Translations under genes and position numbers: made by a program | Shown here: positions 2,739 to 16,877 of the stretch, piece by piece | How the letters are laid out: the number at the start of each line of letters is the position of its first letter | Numbering within the stretch: the stretch's first letter is position 1 | The notes under the pieces: generated by a model | What the model was told of the DNA's origin: nothing | The model's input: only the letters and a program-made list of their open reading frames with translations | Databases searched by the model: none | Assembly (NCBI GenBank): GCA_038833255.1 | Contig: JAWBIX010000005.1 | Span: 1 to 19,089, forward strand | Direction of reading: 5' to 3' | Length of the DNA stretch: 19,089 bases | DNA from: Nanopusillaceae archaeon | GTDB taxonomy: Archaea; Nanobdellota; Nanobdellia; Nanobdellales; Nanobdellaceae

Positions 2739-4228
<1,490 letters not shown>

Positions 4229-4234
4229 TAGTTA

Positions 4235-4250
4235 AATCCGGGATAATCTC
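4235..4250 (+). promoter_or_regulatory. 3' arm of the 16S rRNA processing helix
   Basis: AATCCGGGATAATCTC is the reverse complement of 2674-2689. It starts only 7 nt after ...GCUGGAUC. Confidence 0.8.
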
Positions 4251-10227: not shown

Positions 10228-10244
10228 GAGGGTTATATAACCCA
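10228..10244 (-). promoter_or_regulatory. 3' arm of the 23S rRNA processing helix
   Basis: GAGGGTTATATAACCCA (plus strand) is the exact reverse complement of 13186-13202 (17/17 bp). Confidence 0.8.
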
Positions 10245-13185
10245 CGGGCGATTGGGAGCGGTCGGCTCACTCCTCGGAAACCCTCGGAGCTTACACCGCC
10301 GCCCCATCAACGGGGTCTTCTACCCCAGCCCTTAACGGCCGCCTATTTTCGGGGTGGGGTTCGCCCTTAGATGCTTTCAGGGCTTACCCCTTATGGCGTA
10401 GCTACCGGGCTTGCCCTCGTCGGACAGCCCGTCCACCAGTGGCCACGGACCGCCGTTCCTTTCGTACTAGGCGGTCCTTCCCCTCAGGCGGCCAGCACCC
10501 CCGACAGTTAGAGACCGAACTGCCTCGCGGCGTTCTGAACCCATCTCACGACCCCTTTTAATGGGTGAGCACCCCCACCCTTGGCGGCTTCTGCACCGCC
10601 AGGATAGGGGGAGACGACGTCGAGGTCACGAACCGCGGGGTCGATGTGGGCTCTCGCCCGCGACTGTGCTGTTACCCCCGGAGTAGCTTTTCCGCCAGCC
10701 CATACCCCCACCAATGGGAGTATGGGGTTCGCTAGGCCCGGGTTTCCCCCCTGCGCCCCTTGATGGTCGGGGCGCAGTCAGGCCGGCTTTTGGCCTTGTC
10801 CTCCACAGCGGAGTTCTGACCCGCTTGAGCCGACCTTTTGGACCCCGCCGATATCTTTTCGGCGGGGTGCCGCCCCAGCCAAACCGCCCACCTGCCGCTG
10901 TCCTCTTCCGAGTTAGTTCCAAAGGGTCCAGAGGCGGGTGTTTCATGGACGCATCCCTTCAACCTAGCGGCTGAAGTTCATCGCTCCCCGCTACGCTACA
11001 CACTGGACCCTTTGGAACAACGGCAGGCTGCGGTTAAGCTTCACGGGGTCTTTTCTACCCATCGGGGGTCCCTGGCCTTCTCACCAGGACGGCAGGTTCA
11101 GGGGGTCCCGGCCAGGGACAGTGGCGGGCTCGTTACACCGTTCGCAAAGCCGGCATTTAACCGGCAAGGCATTACGCTACCTTAAGAGGGTCAGAGTTAC
11201 CCCCGCCGTTTACCGGCCCTTAGCCCCCTTGAACGGGGGGTTCAGGTACCGGCACTGGGCAGGTGTCGCCCCCGGTAAAAACCCTTTCGGGCTATCCGGG
11301 AGCTATGTTTTTGATAAACAGTCGGCCCGCCCTTGTCACTGCGACCTGCGGTAGCAGGATTATCCCACTACCGCAGGCACCCCTTCTCCCGAAGTTACGG
11401 GGCCAATTTGCCGAGTTCCCTTGGCCGGGTTACCCCCACGGCCTTAGGCTTCTCACCCAGGGGACCAGTATCGGTGTGCGGTACGGTCACCCGGGATCGT
11501 TTCCCTTTCCCTTTTCATAGCTGCCAGGCCTCGGCGGAAATTCAGGGATTGAGCCGGTTCTCGCCATTACGGCACTCCCCGGCCCTATTCCCCTTATCGG
11601 AGGTAAGTAGGTTTTACCCTACCCCTCCGTCCGCCTAGCCCGACAGGTCGGGAAAGGGACTTGCGTTGCCGCACCTACCCGGGTGGTAGGGGAATATTAA
11701 CCCCTTTCCCTTTCCCCATACTCCTCTCGGAGTATGGGTTAGGACCGACTAACCCCCAGTTGATCTTCATTGCTGGGGAAACCTTTCCCCCTTCGGCCAA
11801 CGGGATTCTCACCCGTCTGATTCCTACTACCGCGGGGATCTTCATTCCGGACGGCTCCAGAGCCCCTTTCGGAGCTCCTTCTAGGCCATCCGGACGCCCG
11901 CCTACCTCACGCGGATCAAAGATCCGCGGACCTGGGTCTCGGCGGCCGGCTTAGACCCGTCCGTTTTCGAGGCCTACCCCCTCGCCGGGTGAGCTGTTAC
12001 GCACTCCTTAGATGATGGCTGCTTCTAAGCCTACATCCCCGGTGTCTTAGGGGGTAGACACTCTTCCTTTTCACTTAGCCGGCACTTTGGGGCCTTAACC
12101 CAGGTCTTGGTTGTTCCCATCTCGGATACGCGGCTTTCCCGCGTACCCCGTTTCCCGGGATCTACGGATCTACCGGCTTCGGAGTTGGACTCCGTAGGGA
12201 TAACCCCTACGGAATCCGTAGCTCTACACCGGTAGAATCCTCCCCCGAGACTTGACTGCAGCCAATTTCGGCGGGGACCGGCTATCACCGGGCCCGATTG
12301 GCTTTTCACCCCTACTCCGAGGTCATGAGAGGGATTTTTCCCACCTCTTCGGGCCTCCACGGGGGTTTCCCCCCGCTTCGCCCTGCCTCGGAGTAGATCG
12401 CCCGGTTTCCGGTCGTATCCGAGTGACTATCCGCTCTTTCGAACGGGTCCCCTCGCGGTAAACCCGCTGCGGGATCTCGGTTTCCCTACGGCTTCGGGGA
12501 TAAACCCCTTAACCTCGCCACTCGGATACACTCCCCCGCACGTTCTTCCAAACGTACGGCAAGACAGGTTAATCTTACGGTTGTACTCGCCCGTTGCCGA
12601 GGCTTTCCAACCGTAAGACCTAACCTGCCTTGCCCGACTATCCCTACCCGGTTTCAGGCTCTTTTCACTCCCTGTCACGGGTTCTTTTCACCGTTCGGTC
12701 GCCCTACTATGCGCTATCGGACTCGGGGAGTATTTAGCCTTGGGGGTTGGTTACCCCCAACTTCCCGACGGAAATCCAACCGCCGGTACTCCGGAAGTGG
12801 GGATATCCTGTTATAAAAACCCCTACGGGACTGTCACCCTCTACGGTCCCGGACTTCCACCGGAGTTCGGAGTTTTTATAACAGGATATCCCCCACCCCT
12901 TAACACCACATCTCCTCTGAGTTACCTCAGAGGATTAGGTTTAGGCTTTTCCCCGTTCGGTCGCCCCTACTAGGGGAATCACACTTTGTTTTCTTTTCCT
13001 GCGGGTACTGAGATGTTTCACTTCCCCGCGTTCCCCTCCCTTACGGGATGTTCGGATTTTATCCGAACGGGAGTTCCCATTCGGGGATCCGCGGATCTTC
13101 GGTTGCATGCACCTCCCCGCGGCATTTGGCCGCTTGCCGCCCCCTTCTTCGGCTCCCGAGCCCAGGCATCCACCGGGTAGGTTAC
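10245..13185 (-). rRNA. rrl: 23S (LSU) rRNA, archaeal, ~2.94 kb
   Basis: - The minus strand begins GUAACCUACCCGGUGGAUGCCUGGGCUCGGGAGCCGAAG.
- It contains the sarcin-ricin loop CCUAGUACGAAAGGAACGG and CUGAAAGCAUCUAAG near the 3' end.
- It is G+C-rich throughout. The length leaves no room for a large intron. The ends are approximate. Confidence 0.97.
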
Positions 13186-13202
13186 TGGGTTATATAACCC
13201 TC
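13186..13202 (-). promoter_or_regulatory. 5' arm of the 23S rRNA processing helix
   Basis: TGGGTTATATAACCCTC (plus strand) pairs with 10228-10244 in the minus-strand precursor. The core GGGTTATATAACCC is itself palindromic. Confidence 0.8.
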
Positions 13203-13318: not shown

Positions 13319-14995
13319 ATGATTGAATTGGAGAAAAAAGAAAACTTTTCCGAATGGTATAATCAAATAATTAGAAAAGCGGAAATAATTGATGACAGAT
13401 TTCCTGTAAAAGGAATGCCCGTATATCCACACTATGGATTTTCCATAATAAAAAATATTTTTTCAATTTTAGAAAAAATGTTAGATAAAGAAAAGTATAG
13501 AGCTATATGGATGCCGATTCTAATTCCAAAAGAAATATTTCAAAAAGAAGAGGAGCATATTCGTGGTTTTGGAAGCGAAGTATTTTACGTAAAACCTAGC
13601 AACCCTCTAGAAGAAGAAAAAGAAATATATTATATACTTAGACCAACGTCAGAAACAGAACTTTATTATATGTTTTCTTTATGGATTAATTCCTACAAGG
13701 ATTTACCACTTTTAGTTTATATGACTAACACTGTTTATAGATATGAAACAAAAGCAACAAAACCTTTAATTAGAGGTAGAGAAATTTTGTGGATAGAAGC
13801 TCATACTGCTCATAAGGATATTGATGATGCTTACAAAAACGTCAAAAAGTCTATGGAAATTTATTCCTACTTATTTTGGAATGTTTTATCGATTCCCCAT
13901 GTTTGGGTCGTAAGACCAGATTGGGATAAATTTGCAGGAGCCCAAAAAACTTTCGCAGCAGATACTATATTAGCTGATGGTAAATTTTTACAGATAGGTA
14001 CGACACACATGCTTGGTCAAAATTTTTCAAAAGCATTCGATATAAAATTTCAGGATAAGCATCCATACGTAAAAATCTCAGAGAATACTTTTGAAGCAAA
14101 AAACAAAAATGGGGAATATAAATTTATAATAAATATTTTCGATAATACTATAGAAGTTAAATTTTATGAAAAAAATATTGAAAAAGCAAAAATTTTAGAT
14201 AAAATTGAATTCTCTGGAGAGATATCTGAAGATAATGAGGAATTAATTGAAAAAATTAATAAAATATTAGAAAAACATTTTCCAAAAGAGTTTTTAGATT
14301 TAGATAACAATAAATATGTTTGGCAAACCTGCTTTGGAGTATCTATGAGATTATTAGCTGCGGTAATAGGAATACATGGTGATGATAATGGTTTAGTTTT
14401 GCCTTTTAGTATTGCACCAATACAAATAATTATAATTCCAATATATTATTCCGAATCTGAAAAAAATAAAATTTTAGATTACTGTAAAAAAATAAAAAAT
14501 ATTCTTTCCAATAAATATAGAGTAGAAATTGATGACAGAGATGATAAAACTCCAGGATGGAAATTCAATTACTGGGAAATGAAAGGAGTACCAATTAGAA
14601 TAGAAATTGGATTTAAAGAATTAGAAAGTACAACTGTAACACTTTGTGATAGATTAACTAAAAAAAGAAAATCTATTCATTTAGACAAAATTGAAGAGTG
14701 TATAGAAGAGATTTCAAATGAGATGGATTTAAAACTAAAAGAGCGTAGTAAAAAATTTTTTGAAGAAAGCATAATAAAGGTTACCTCCATAGAGGATCTA
14801 AAAAATGTTATAGAAAACAAAAAAGCAGCTAAAATTCCTTTTTGTCTAAATGAAGAATGTGGTAAAAAGTTAAAAGATACCTTAAATATTGATGTTCGTG
14901 GCTATGATATAATTCCGGAAGTTGCTGAAGATTTTGAATGTATTATTTGTAAAAATAAAGCAAAATATTGGTGTTATGTTGGAAAAAGTTATTAG
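13319..14995 (+). CDS. proS: Prolyl-tRNA synthetase, archaeal/eukaryote-like type, with an ~84-aa insertion
   Basis: 558-aa ORF. It shows FSEWYNQIIRKAEIIDDRFPVKG, LRPTSET, VYRYETK.TKPLIRGREI.WIEAHTAH, GQNFSKAF, WQTCFGVSMRLLAAVIGIHGDDNGLVLP, the anticodon-binding block IDDRDDKTPGWKFNYWEMKGVPIRIEIG, and a Cys-rich C-terminal domain ending in Tyr. Confidence 0.92.
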   Translation: MIELEKKENFSEWYNQIIRKAEIIDDRFPVKGMPVYPHYGFSIIKNIFSILEKMLDKEKYRAIWMPILIPKEIFQKEEEHIRGFGSEVFYVKPSNPLEEEKEIYYILRPTSETELYYMFSLWINSYKDLPLLVYMTNTVYRYETKATKPLIRGREILWIEAHTAHKDIDDAYKNVKKSMEIYSYLFWNVLSIPHVWVVRPDWDKFAGAQKTFAADTILADGKFLQIGTTHMLGQNFSKAFDIKFQDKHPYVKISENTFEAKNKNGEYKFIINIFDNTIEVKFYEKNIEKAKILDKIEFSGEISEDNEELIEKINKILEKHFPKEFLDLDNNKYVWQTCFGVSMRLLAAVIGIHGDDNGLVLPFSIAPIQIIIIPIYYSESEKNKILDYCKKIKNILSNKYRVEIDDRDDKTPGWKFNYWEMKGVPIRIEIGFKELESTTVTLCDRLTKKRKSIHLDKIEECIEEISNEMDLKLKERSKKFFEESIIKVTSIEDLKNVIENKKAAKIPFCLNEECGKKLKDTLNIDVRGYDIIPEVAEDFECIICKNKAKYWCYVGKSY

Positions 14996-15226
14996 GTGGC
15001 CGTAAGCCGTTTTTAGTATCTATTCTTCTAATCGGCAACCTTTTACCGGCGGGTCTTCTTTCTCAAGATACCGAAGGGCTCTCCAAGGTTGCCTCAGGTT
15101 ACCCCGAGGCATTGCCTTTTCATTTTCATATACCCTTCGGCTCTTTATTTCTTATGAAGTTGCCGGGGATTTCTCCCCCCGACTTACGTCGGCGCCCTAC
15201 GGTAAACGGACTTTCCAACGGCCACC
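14995..15226 (-). ncRNA. rnpB: RNase P RNA (reduced form, 232 nt)
   Basis: - Minus strand: GGUGGCCG-UU-GGAAAGUCCG...AGAAGAAU-AGAU-ACUAAAAACGGCUUA-CGGCCACC.
- Conserved regions: CR-I GGAAAGUCC (15208-15216), CR-IV AGNNNNAU (15022-15029), CR-V ACNRAA..GGCUUA (15003-15017).
- P4 forms from AAG(U)CCG/CGGCUU with a bulged U. P1 is an 8-bp terminal helix.
- Tandem GNRA hairpins sit in P8/P9-like positions, followed by a P10/11-P12-like arm.
- It is a G+C-rich island with a TATA box at -33..-25. Confidence 0.85.
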
Positions 15227-15230
15227 TATA

Positions 15231-15237
15231 TTTATAA
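15231..15237 (+). promoter_or_regulatory. TATA box for the Sec61-beta gene
   Basis: TTTATAA lies at -30..-24 from ATG 15261, directly abutting the RNase P RNA +1 on the other strand. Confidence 0.4.
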
Positions 15238-15250
15238 GTTTCTCTTAAAA

Positions 15251-15259
15251 TATTAAAAA
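15251..15259 (-). promoter_or_regulatory. TATA box for the RNase P RNA gene
   Basis: The minus strand reads TTTTTAATA at -33..-25 from the first G of GGUGGCCG (15226). Confidence 0.45.
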
Positions 15260-15260
15260 T

Positions 15261-15431
15261 ATGACTACAAAGAAAGTAGAAATTTCCCCTATTAGAAGCT
15301 TTGCCGGAATATTTAAATTTGGAAAAGAGAAATCTAAACTAGCTATAGATAAAAACACTTTAATAGCTTTAGCAATTATTCTGTCTATTTTAATATTAGC
15401 TGCTCATCTTTTATTTAAGTATTTTATATAA
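15261..15431 (+). CDS. secG: Preprotein translocase subunit Sec61-beta / archaeal SecG (56 aa; below ORF-track cutoff)
   Basis: Hand translation: MTTKKVEISPIRSFAGIFKFGKEKSKLAIDKNTLIALAIILSILILAAHLLFKYFI. The AG(L/I)xx(F/Y) motif, followed by a short linker and a single C-terminal TM anchor, matches archaeal Sec-beta architecture. Confidence 0.55.
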   Translation: MTTKKVEISPIRSFAGIFKFGKEKSKLAIDKNTLIALAIILSILILAAHLLFKYFI

Positions 15432-15437
15432 AAAACT

Positions 15438-15869
15438 ATGAACTACAAGGAACTTCTCTCTGAAGTTTTACACATATACAACGTATCTTTAAAAAATAAT
15501 AAAGGCTTAGAAACTGTAAAACAATTAATAAAAGCTTTATGTGACTTTTACGATTCAGCAATAACCGAATATTTGCAATATTTAAAAAAAAATGGAAAAA
15601 TAAAAGAAATTCCAGAAGCTCCAATAAAAAGATTGGATCTATTTGAAAGTCTTTTTACCTCTGAAGACATAAAACCGATGTTAGAAGATTACAAAATTTT
15701 AAGATTTTGCATAAATTCTGAGATTATAACAAAAGATGAATATAGAAGATCTATGAAAATTATATGTTCGTCTTTAGATAAGACAATAGAGATAAATCAA
15801 AAAAAATTAAAAGATTTCGTAGAAATGGCCAAAAAGTTTTCACAAATTATTGAAAAACAAATTGGCTGA
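15438..15869 (+). CDS. Hypothetical all-helical protein, overlaps the MinD-like gene
   Basis: 143-aa ORF with an ATG start. I recognise no motif. Its 3' end overlaps the next gene by 20 nt. Confidence 0.5.
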   Translation: MNYKELLSEVLHIYNVSLKNNKGLETVKQLIKALCDFYDSAITEYLQYLKKNGKIKEIPEAPIKRLDLFESLFTSEDIKPMLEDYKILRFCINSEIITKDEYRRSMKIICSSLDKTIEINQKKLKDFVEMAKKFSQIIEKQIG

Positions 15870-16617
15870 CGTATTTTCAATAATTTCTGGTAAAGGAGGA
15901 GTAGGAAAAACGTTTATTTCTATAAATTTAGCATATGCTATAAGTAAATTTAATAGAAAGGTTCTTTTAATTGATGCAAATATTACAACACCAAACGTGA
16001 GTATTGTTTTAAAAGTTGATAGAAAAGGCAAAACCATTCATGATTTTTTAAGATCTAAGATTGATTTAGAAGATGCCATTTTTAAAACAAAATACGGATT
16101 TGATCTAATTCCGGGAAGTCTCCAAATAGAAGATCTTATAGATATAGATTTAGATAGATTATGTTTTTTATATAAAATTAGAGAAAAGTACGATTATATA
16201 ATACTAGATTCTTCAGCTGGTCTTGGAAGAGAAACATATTCTTCTATTAAAGCCTCTGACGAAGTTATATTGGTTACAACTCCTGAAAAAGCAGCGTTAA
16301 TGGATGCTTTAAGAGCGATAAAAATATGTAAAACTTTAGGAACAAAAATAAGAGGAATAATTTTAAATAGATACGATACAAATGTAGATCTTTATAAAAT
16401 AGAAACTTTACTAGAAGAAAAAATAATAGGGGTTGTTAGAGAAGATGAAAATGTTCAATATAGTATGAATATTGGTGTTCCATTATTAGAAGTAGATCCT
16501 GCTTCTCCCGCATCTTTAGATATACTAAATATATCTAAAAAGATCTTAGGAATAAGAGAAGATACAAAAGAAGAAGGATTTTTAAGAAAAATATTTAAAA
16601 TATTTAAATGGAAATAG
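15850..16617 (+). CDS. minD: MinD/ParA-family P-loop ATPase
   Basis: It has the deviant Walker A SGKGGVGKTFISINLA with the signature Lys, VLLIDANI, and Walker B DYIILDSSAG. The length is typical of archaeal MinD homologues. The only start codon close to the P-loop is TTG (15850). Confidence 0.85.
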   Translation: MKNKLADVFSIISGKGGVGKTFISINLAYAISKFNRKVLLIDANITTPNVSIVLKVDRKGKTIHDFLRSKIDLEDAIFKTKYGFDLIPGSLQIEDLIDIDLDRLCFLYKIREKYDYIILDSSAGLGRETYSSIKASDEVILVTTPEKAALMDALRAIKICKTLGTKIRGIILNRYDTNVDLYKIETLLEEKIIGVVREDENVQYSMNIGVPLLEVDPASPASLDILNISKKILGIREDTKEEGFLRKIFKIFKWK

Positions 16618-16877
16618 ATTTTCAAATAAATAAAATTTTAGAAATTATTAAAGAAAAAAAACCAAAAAAAATTTTATTACAATTTCCAGATGGTTTAAAA
16701 CCAAAATCAAAAGAAGTATATGATGCTATAAAAAATTCTTTTCCAGATATAGAAGTCTATATATGGTTAGGGGAAAATTTTGGTGGTTGTGATGTTCCTA
16801 TATGGCTAGAAAAATATGGATTTGATCTTATAATAAATATTGGACACTTGAAAGTTTTAATGAAAAAAGAAGTATGA
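16608..16877 (+). CDS. dph2: Diphthamide synthase Dph2, N-terminal domain-1 fragment only (split gene or remnant)
   Basis: 89-aa ORF. ILLQFPDGLK...IEVYIWLGENFGGCDVP...GFDLIINIGH matches the first ~85 residues of archaeal Dph2 (QxPEGL and YGACD motifs; the Cys is the domain-1 Fe-S ligand). The ORF stops right after the GH motif, and the downstream ORF is unrelated. Confidence 0.7.
   Translation: MEIDFQINKILEIIKEKKPKKILLQFPDGLKPKSKEVYDAIKNSFPDIEVYIWLGENFGGCDVPIWLEKYGFDLIINIGHLKVLMKKEV

Follow-up and report, generated by a model that had tools for sequence, protein, structure and literature searches.

A reduced RNase P RNA gene without P2 and P3 in a Nanopusillaceae archaeon, with covariation support from 29 homologues

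The 19,089-nt stretch of DNA analysed here (the window), from an archaeon of the Nanopusillaceae (Nanoarchaeota), almost certainly carries at 14994–15227 on its minus strand the gene for the catalytic RNA of RNase P, in the reduced form of that family. RNase P is the enzyme that trims tRNA precursors. An identical copy of a protein encoded next to it is labelled as Nanopusillaceae, so the lineage presumed in the first-pass annotation is correct. The window RNA is typical of a reduced type that has been published, and its architecture is already known; compensatory changes across many lineages support the view that a cellular RNase P can do without the P2 and P3 helices, an idea that is itself not new.

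The identification, proposed in a first-pass annotation, is borne out by the covariance-model search suggested there. Run in E-value mode, the archaeal model RNaseP_arch (Rfam RF00373, clan CL00002) matches 14994–15227 on the minus strand end to end (model positions 1–288) with 83.7 bits and an E-value of 8e-24. A gathering-score Rfam scan of the whole window returned no RNase P match because this score lies 0.3 bit under the 84-bit gathering cut-off, a shortfall that would explain why the RNA has gone unannotated. Against the same cut-off a one-base variant scores 84.3 bits and the other nanoarchaeal homologues 63.9–81.9 bits, the E-values of nanoarchaeal homologues ranging from 1e-15 to 1e-24. 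As first described, the rRNAs apart, no other part of the window forms a G+C-rich island (0.43 at 15001–15300 versus 0.17–0.34 elsewhere), and the RNA of this locus folds with a minimum free energy of −95.5 kcal/mol (z = −6.67), none of 200 shuffles being as stable. The features of the gene and its flanks are listed here from the divergent neighbour to the 3′ side of the RNA.

15261–15431, plus strand: divergent 56-aa ORF with a weak Sec61-beta match (NF002318, E 8e-4; PF03911 weak in L138)
15251–15259, minus strand: TATA-box-like TTTTTAATA, with its centre about 28 nt before the 5′ end of P1
14994–15227, minus strand: RNase P RNA gene, about 232–234 nt, reduced nanoarchaeal type (RF00373 match; custom model R1, 237.6 bits)
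15219–15227, minus strand: P1 5′ strand (A)GGUGGCCG, pairing with 14994–15002; changes on both sides in 6 of 9 pairs among the 29 homologues
15206–15216, minus strand: CR-I GGAAAGUCCGU (Rfam alignment), with the P4 5′ strand at 15206–15213 and the bulged U at 15210
15193–15205, minus strand: P5 5′ strand (15201–15205), internal loop and P7 5′ strand (15193–15196), as helices of the alignment
15179–15192, minus strand: P8 hairpin CCGAC-GUAA-GUCGG (Rfam alignment; 3 of 5 pairs covary)
15165–15178, minus strand: P9 hairpin GGGGA-GAAA-UCCCC (Rfam alignment; 4 of 5 pairs covary, 99.3% paired)
15156–15164, minus strand: GGCAA with P10 (GG, invariant) and the P10/11 5′ strand CUUC; partners at 15052–15058
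15147–15153, minus strand: CR-II-like AAGAAAU on the J11/12 side of the S-domain, a conserved block that corresponds to ACAGAAAC in the Rfam model
15066–15144, minus strand: P11–P12 arm, comprising an 11–13-bp P11, a AUGAAAAUGAA / GGAGAG internal loop and a GUAA-capped P12
15060–15065, minus strand: CR-III-like UGAGAA, conserved in both alignments
15043–15058, minus strand: 3′ strands of P10/11 (GAAG), P10 (CC), P7 (CGCC) and P5 (GGUAA), from the Rfam alignment and covariation
15034–15040, minus strand: P15 remnant GG-UUG-CC, in which 3 nt replace a 41-position insert of the Rfam alignment
15003–15029, minus strand: CR-IV AGAAGAAU, the 4-nt J2/4 AGAU and CR-V ACUAAAAACGGCUUA, with 6 model positions deleted in the Rfam alignment
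15004–15010, minus strand: P4 3′ strand, within CR-V
14994–15002, minus strand: P1 3′ strand CGGCCACC(U), overlapping the stop codon of ProRS (14993–14995, plus strand)
14983–14987, minus strand: oligo-T run (CUUUUUCC), 7 nt past P1; the opposite strand encodes the ProRS C terminus

CR-I (GGAAAGUCC), CR-IV (AGAAGAAU) and CR-V (ACUAAAAACGGCUUA) stand in the correct order and with high posterior probability in the Rfam model alignment. These regions, the P4 with its bulged U and a P1 of 8 bp are present in the sequence as the first-pass annotation had read them; a terminal A-U would bring P1 to 9 bp, CR-I and CR-V build the P4 pseudoknot, and the linker from P1 to CR-I is the dinucleotide UU (15217–15218). 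The specificity domain is complete and type-A-like, comprising the P7–P10 cruciform, CR-II and CR-III and the P11–P12 arm. Its P8 and P9 hairpins and long GUAA-capped arm are as first described; for the P5/P7-like pairing the helices stand but the proposed GGG/CCC register does not, since P7 is GGCG/CGCC and P10 is formed by the CC next to it with the GG of GGCAA. Judged by its sequence, the AUGAAAAUGAA / GGAGAG loop probably forms a double K-turn-like element; in type A and type M RNAs, P12 is known to carry a double K-turn to which L7Ae binds (PMC5499556). P6, P16, P17 and the distal part of P15 are absent, in line with the earlier reading that P15–P17 are missing, and P15 is retained as 2 bp only, closing a 3-nt loop in the Rfam alignment. 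This loop measures 3–6 nt in the homologues (UUG, UUAU, UAUA, AAAAA, AUAG, UAUAGA), and its sequence differs among lineages, so the GGU that had been likened to L15 is not a conserved feature. The suggested pseudoknot between GGUUGCCG and CGGCAACU is likewise unsupported by the alignments and was rejected: it shows no compensatory changes, its 57.9% pairing is the same as the average of the shuffles, and in 20–24 of 27 sequences the pairs at its middle are disrupted.

We gathered 29 distinct homologues, all of the same layout and 61–99% identical to the window RNA, from Nst1 (Ca. Nanobsidianus stetteri; L091, OBNano contig), Nanobdella aerobiophila (AP019769.1), the complete genome AP031373.1 and metagenomes. 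CR-I lies exactly 2 nt past P1 in every one of them, and the alignments show hardly any change in CR-I, CR-IV, CR-V or the K-turn block. Homologues found by DNA pattern were selected on the spacing between CR-IV and CR-V, so that this spacing is independent evidence only in the eight loci found by synteny, which share it (L006, L086, L088, L091, L092, L093, L137 and L138). A ProRS scan of the genome collection yielded a single close relative (L006); its other 79 loci belong to distant archaea and hold no matching RNA, and at the ProRS locus of Nanoclepta minutus and at two other distant ProRS loci there is neither a gap after ProRS nor an RNA match. The reduced form is common to all sampled terrestrial Nanopusillaceae, cultured species included.

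Covariation among related loci, the check that the first-pass annotation had called for, exceeds chance in both alignments. With MAFFT, 40 pairs are changed on both sides compared with 19.0 in shuffles (0 of 500), and 83.7% of cells are paired compared with 28–51% when the partners are slid; the model-fitted alignment has 92.2% of cells paired and 37 both-side pairs compared with 17.5 (0 of 500). Compensatory changes back P1, P4, P5, P7, P8, P9, P10/11, P11 and P12. The P1 sequences of two homologues (L093 and L115) are wholly different, with pairing retained. Both-side changes occur in 4 of 4 pairs of P7 (98.3% of cells paired) and 4 of 4 of P10/11 (100%) and, in the model-fitted alignment, in 4 of the 7 bp of P4 (98.5%), where the helices of P12 also covary. 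P11 is out of register in the MAFFT alignment (41.8% paired), which was resolved by folding each sequence and by duplex tests: the helix forms in every homologue, in at least six unrelated sequences, with 10–13 bp (11–13 in all but one variant). As a separate observation, 27 homologues have the U at the P4 bulge that is held to be universal, and the lineages L115 and L138 have A there.

P2 and P3 were formerly counted in the universal core of RNase P RNA. The Rfam alignment deletes both strands of P2 and the entire P3, while the helices of the S-domain covary; the earlier picture of an RNA without P2/P3 that keeps its S-domain is therefore upheld, and none of the 29 homologues has space for either helix. 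Part of the original argument had been that only 4 nt separate CR-IV from CR-V. The 3′ strand of P2 is indeed absent there, but the Rfam model has those 4 nt as its regular J2/4 residues, so that the deletion is exactly the 6-nt P2 3′ strand between CR-IV and J2/4.

The missing helices are not encoded in the flanks, as had also been argued. The start codon of the divergent 56-aa ORF lies 35 nt from the 5′ end of the RNA and bounds the upstream space, and the conserved TATA box beside it, about 26 nt upstream of the RNA, leaves no room for flank-encoded helices; downstream lies the coding sequence of ProRS. Every clade has a TATA-like element equally far from the RNA (that of the Nst1 clade is TTTATATA at −29 to −22), and in the window TTTTTAATA is likely to be the promoter of the RNA gene. 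An oligo-T run follows P1 in most clades, though not all, and might tentatively be taken as an archaeal terminator. Domains of RNase P proteins are absent from the 19-kb window and from the listed ±10-kb neighbourhoods. The idea that a conserved 143-aa neighbour is one of the RNase P proteins, perhaps a diverged form of Pop5, has no support and was rejected: its Pfam match to NEPRO_N is weak (E 0.003, below the cut-off), and its confident AlphaFold model (pLDDT 88.6) bears no likeness to RNase P proteins and gives no more than weak matches to HEPN-like folds (E > 0.1, TM about 0.5). The examined loci contain only six tRNA genes, whose A+T-rich upstream regions permit several placements of a TATA box.

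The first-pass annotation regarded the architecture as new, a claim that the literature overturns. Podar 2013 described the RNase P RNA of Nst1 as short, atypical and unfoldable, with ‘partial degradation’, and reported three RNase P protein subunits, p21, p29 and p30, in the same organism (PMC3655853). A PNAS paper of 2026 stated that the RNase P RNAs of Nanoarchaeales (Nanopusillaceae) have lost P3 and P2 and drew the Nst1 secondary structure without them in its SI Fig. S12A (PMC12974513). These published accounts consist of a modelled secondary structure of one species only. As the loss of P2/P3 in Nanopusillaceae is already documented, their absence is no bar to counting the window RNA as an RNase P RNA. 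The Nst1 literature reports Rpp21, Rpp29, Rpp30 and L7Ae, with Pop5 not found.

Other readings of the locus have to be set against this evidence. An 89-aa plus-strand ORF (14968–15237) spans the region, which might thus be protein-coding, or else a chance cluster of G+C-rich hairpins; however, no gene with the product of this ORF is recorded, in agreement with its earlier dismissal as spurious, and substitutions among the homologues follow base-pairing rather than codons. The RNaseP_arch match (E 8e-24) and the covariation refute both ideas, whose probability is negligible. That P2/P3 might come from a longer transcript or from a separate RNA acting in trans, after the manner of the split genes of N. 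equitans, draws on the frequency of split genes in Nanoarchaeota and on a fragment of a split Dph2 at 16608–16877 in the window itself. Yet the only place for the P2 3′ strand is inside the RNA, between CR-IV and J2/4, where it is absent; a longer transcript would have to find its helices in the 35 nt before a divergent start codon, which include the TATA box, or in the ProRS coding sequence, and the published model is likewise without P2/P3 (PMC12974513); we consider this explanation exceedingly improbable.

The gene could also be a decaying, non-functional relic heading for the complete loss that N. equitans has undergone, for which one may cite the heavily reduced catalytic domain, the wording ‘partial degradation’ of Podar 2013 (PMC3655853), the failure to find Pop5 in Nst1 and the change of the P4 bulge from U to A in two lineages. 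A relic would not, however, keep every helix through compensatory changes across lineages whose ProRS proteins are only 55–60% identical, nor nearly invariant CR-I, CR-IV, CR-V and K-turn blocks, nor a conserved promoter geometry, and this pattern of helix, core and promoter conservation makes decay very unlikely.

Rather than a relic, the RNA can tentatively be viewed as part of a working cellular RNase P with a catalytic domain of P1, P4 and P5, in which lineage-specific protein contacts have replaced the scaffold of P2/P3 and P15–P17, and possibly Pop5, and in which the metal-binding bulged U of P4 may be A (L115, L138); we hold this fuller proposal as possible, though less likely than not. 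As for how the RNA most likely works, transcription would begin at P1 from the gene’s own TATA promoter, the S-domain would dock the elbow of the tRNA, and P4 with its flanking joining regions would hold the catalytic Mg2+ ions. Protein subunits, in Nst1 presumably Rpp21, Rpp29, Rpp30 and L7Ae, would take over the scaffolding role of the P2/P3 stack and P15–P17. If the fuller proposal is true, co-cultures of Nanobdella and Nanopusillus offer a natural system for the minimal RNA of RNase P catalysis. For annotation, all 29 nanoarchaeal RNase P RNAs reach no more than about the cut-off (63.9–84.3 bits against 84), so the gene will usually be missed, and pipelines may then keep a spurious ORF or wrongly imply that RNase P is absent, as in N. 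equitans.

Among known RNAs the nearest is that of Nst1, which is the same gene, with end-to-end alignment at 67% identity, shared neighbours, the 2-nt linker from P1 to CR-I, the loss of P2/P3 and P15–P17, and an S-domain. It differs at genus level: ProRS is about 60% identical, the sequences of P8, P11 and P12 differ, and CR-I reads GGAAAGUCC in the window and GGAAGGUCC in Nst1, matched by GGCUUA and GGCCUA, respectively. With type A RNAs (RF00373; for example Pyrococcus) the window RNA shares CR-I to CR-V, P1, P4, P5, the P7–P10 cruciform with P8, and P11–P12 with its K-turn region and GNRA cap, whereas the P2, P3, P6 and P15–P17 of type A are missing except for 2 bp of P15; a canonical type A copy from Methanomassiliicoccales (L071) scores 199.6 bits, compared with 63.9–84.3 for the nanoarchaeal RNAs. 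Type M RNAs (Methanococcales) resemble it in the loss of P6, P16 and P17 and in their reliance on protein (in part PMC5499556), but they lack P8 and keep P2/P3, whereas the window RNA keeps a covarying P8 and lacks P2/P3. Type T (Pyrobaculum and other Thermoproteaceae), a naturally miniaturised archaeal RNA of about 200 nt, is its reverse, having lost most of the S-domain and kept a catalytic domain with P2/P3. The yeast mitochondrial Rpm1 is also without P2/P3, keeps P1, P4 and CR-I, CR-IV and CR-V, and depends on protein (PMC3790967; PMC12974513 SI), but this organellar RNA is descended from a bacterial one, lacks a recognisable S-domain and works with an unrelated protein, Rpm2.

The minus strand of the only G+C-rich island besides the rRNA genes (0.43 G+C, in an A+T-rich background of about 17–34% G+C; the archaeal 16S and 23S rRNA genes reach 60–65%) carries the motifs that the first-pass annotation had read there as RNase P RNA. 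The RNA folds at −95.5 kcal/mol (z = −6.67), far better than shuffled copies. An Rfam scan of the whole window at gathering thresholds returned only the rRNAs, leaving RNase P RNA unreported; in E-value mode the archaeal RNase P model RF00373 matches 14994–15227 (−) over model positions 1–288 with 83.7 bits (E 8e-24), 0.3 bit below its curated cut-off of 84 bits. The identification is correct and the gene is real, and it is probably unannotated in the window; the 89-aa plus-strand ORF said to mask it exists as a reading frame, with no gene on record.

Features of the window
2739–4235 (+), 16S rRNA gene
10233–13197 (−), 23S rRNA gene
13319–14995 (+), ProRS, about 558 aa
14994–15227 (−), reduced archaeal RNase P RNA gene
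15261–15431 (+), 56-aa ORF
15438–15869 (+), 143-aa protein, always adjoining the RNA gene
16608–16877 (+), 89-aa ORF matching the N-terminal part only of Dph2 (diphthamide synthase)

Aligned to RF00373, the RNA lacks model positions of about 10–34, which comprise the P2 5′ strand and the whole of P3, and six positions between CR-IV and J2/4, the P2 3′ strand, while the 41-position P15–P17 insert has shrunk to 3 nt. Homologues were collected by synteny (L006, at 81.9 bits; L086, AP031373.1; L088, a JGI/NCBI contig; L091, the Obsidian Pool Nst1 assembly itself, contig OBNano_10002; L092; and L093, in which the RNA remains with the small-ORF cluster and ProRS lies 3 kb away) and by scanning metagenomes for AGAANNATANATACTAAANNNNGCYTA, the CR-IV/CR-V junction without P2. 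The pattern gave 42 loci, with CR-I at the expected distance in 22 and in variant form in one further locus, L115; the rest were rejected as chance matches of low G+C. Loci traced through relatives of the 143-aa neighbour, in the cultured Nanobdella aerobiophila (L137, AP019769.1) and a further clade (L138), were the source of two more copies. Together these are 29 distinct sequences, 61–99% identical to the window RNA (67% for that of Nst1). The P1-to-CR-I linker is exactly 2 nt in all 29; the 4-nt CR-IV/CR-V spacing is imposed on pattern-found copies, being built into the search, and is also present in eight loci reached by synteny alone.

Could the flanks supply the missing helices? Three positional arguments rule this out, in agreement with the first-pass annotation: the P2 3′ strand would need to lie inside the RNA, the upstream side is occupied by a TATA-like element (in every clade, centred about 26–28 nt upstream of the 5′ end of P1) and a divergent start codon 35 nt from the RNA, and downstream the 3′ end of the RNA gene overlaps the ProRS stop codon. 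The divergent 56-aa ORF is probably Sec61-beta, judging from an NCBIfam match (E 8e-4) and a weak PF03911 match in L138; the 35 bp between it and the RNA gene are a promoter region common to both.

Covariation was counted over P1, P4 (as a pseudoknot), P5, P7, P8, P9, P10, P10/11, P11 and P12. In a MAFFT alignment of 27 sequences, 83.7% of cells are paired (75.7% in shuffles, 28–51% with partners slid 1–3 columns) and 40 pairs are changed on both sides (19.0 in shuffles). The corresponding values in a model-fitted alignment of 29 sequences, which is biased towards structure and whose figures are to be read accordingly, are 92.2% (82.2%, 27–48%) and 37 (17.5). Compensatory changes thus exceed shuffles in both alignments, with 0/500 shuffles matching the observed values in either. 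For P4, the window has AAG(U)CCGU/ACGGCUU, L086 has AGG(U)CCAC/GUGGCCU and the Nst1 clade has AGG(U)CUGC/GCAGCCU; P1 changes from GGUGGCCG/CGGCCACC in the window to CGCUCCAG/CUGGAGCG in L093. P11, misaligned by MAFFT, was resolved by per-sequence folding and duplex tests as a helix of 10–13 bp in every variant (11–13 in all but one), across at least six unrelated sequences.

The structure proposed from the sequence is largely right, with three exceptions. P7 pairs as GGCG/CGCC rather than GGG/CCC, CC pairing with the GG of GGCAA. The suggested pseudoknot GGUUGCCG:CGGCAACU has 0 compensatory changes, is paired no more than shuffles (57.9% versus a mean of 57.8%) and has its central pairs broken in 20–24 of 27 sequences; pairing in P10 and in the P15 stub accounts equally well for the invariant GG and CC that remain. 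Nor is the 'GGU' likened to L15 conserved.

The P4 bulge is U in 27 of 29 homologues and A in two separate lineages, L115 8756–8992 (+), GGAAGGACC, and L138 5562–5796 (−), GGAAAGACC, with the rest of P4 intact in both; a review describes this nucleotide as 'universally conserved' and coordinating a catalytic metal. The most conserved S-domain block, AUGAARAUGAA opposite GGAGAG, looks like the double K-turn with which the P12 helix of type A and type M RNAs binds L7Ae (PMC5499556). In N. aerobiophila (L137 5590–5822 (−)) the first half of this block is degenerate, GAAAAAGAUGAG versus GAUGAAGAUGAAG, with GGAUUGG in place of GGAGAGG; that RNA may therefore retain one putative L7Ae site only.

The comparisons show that the RNA is homologous to RNase P RNA, that its catalytic core and promoter geometry are conserved, and that its structure is under selection. 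We propose that the RNA acts as the ribozyme subunit of an RNP, in which the intact S-domain would be bound by Rpp21–Rpp29 and L7Ae and the reduced C-domain by Rpp30, with or without Pop5, proteins replacing the P2/P3 stack and P15–17.

The neighbouring genes place the locus among nanoarchaea. ProRS has identical copies in MAGs GCA_038997685.1 and GCA_038892735.1, relatives at 81% and about 60% identity in Nanopusillaceae, and 59% and 52% identity to a 773-kb complete Nanoarchaeota genome and Ca. Nanoclepta minutus. It exceeds the about 480 aa of most archaea, and single-segment alignments to other archaeal ProRS proteins cover about 44% of it, pointing to a roughly 80-aa insertion common to Nanopusillaceae and Nanoclepta. 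The 143-aa protein has 14 matches in 5.8 billion proteins, the labelled sources all nanoarchaeal, including an identical copy labelled Nanopusillaceae archaeon. A block of 16 of its residues, LHIYNVSLKNNKGLET, is invariant; the confident AlphaFold model of the protein (pLDDT 88.6) is a helical bundle with a small sheet, fold comparison gave weak HEPN-like matches only, and similarity to RNase P proteins was not found. NCBI labels sister or near-identical MAGs Candidatus Aenigmatarchaeota (L006, P0001, P0122) or Nanopusillaceae (P0002, P0121); protein similarity supports placing the former in Nanoarchaeota, Nanopusillaceae. The Dph2 ORF is part of a split gene, the split being kept in all syntenic loci and listed for Nst1 (Podar et al. 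2013, PMC3655853).

The 16S and 23S rRNA genes are unlinked, on opposite strands and 6 kb apart, and the stretch between them encodes tRNA-guanine transglycosylase, ribosomal protein S19, and an ATPase and membrane proteins of type IV pilus/archaellum-like kind; the window has no 5S rRNA or tRNA genes. In L138 (2470–5796 (−)) ProRS is missing from the locus, and the 23S rRNA gene follows the RNase P RNA on the same strand after about 130 nt, making co-transcription a possibility in that clade.

The architecture had been put forward as new, a claim overturned by earlier publications that describe it in Nanopusillaceae, the family concerned here. Nst1 (Ca. Nanobsidianus stetteri) encodes RNase P RNA and three RNase P proteins (PMC3655853); its smaller RNA, apparent lack of Pop5 and possibly remodelled C-domain have been noted (Samanta et al. 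2016, PMC4919917), and a 2026 PNAS paper gives P2 and P3 as deleted in Nanopusillaceae, its supplement modelling the Nst1 RNA beside yeast mitochondrial Rpm1 (PMC12974513). Added here are covariation support across many lineages, extension of the reduced type to Nanobdella and other clades, the U-to-A change of the P4 bulge in two lineages, and an explanation from score and Rfam cut-off for the missing annotation: the 29 nanoarchaeal RNAs score 63.9–84.3 bits, at or below the 84-bit cut-off, whereas a canonical Methanomassiliicoccales RNase P RNA, present by chance in locus L071, scores 199.6 bits.
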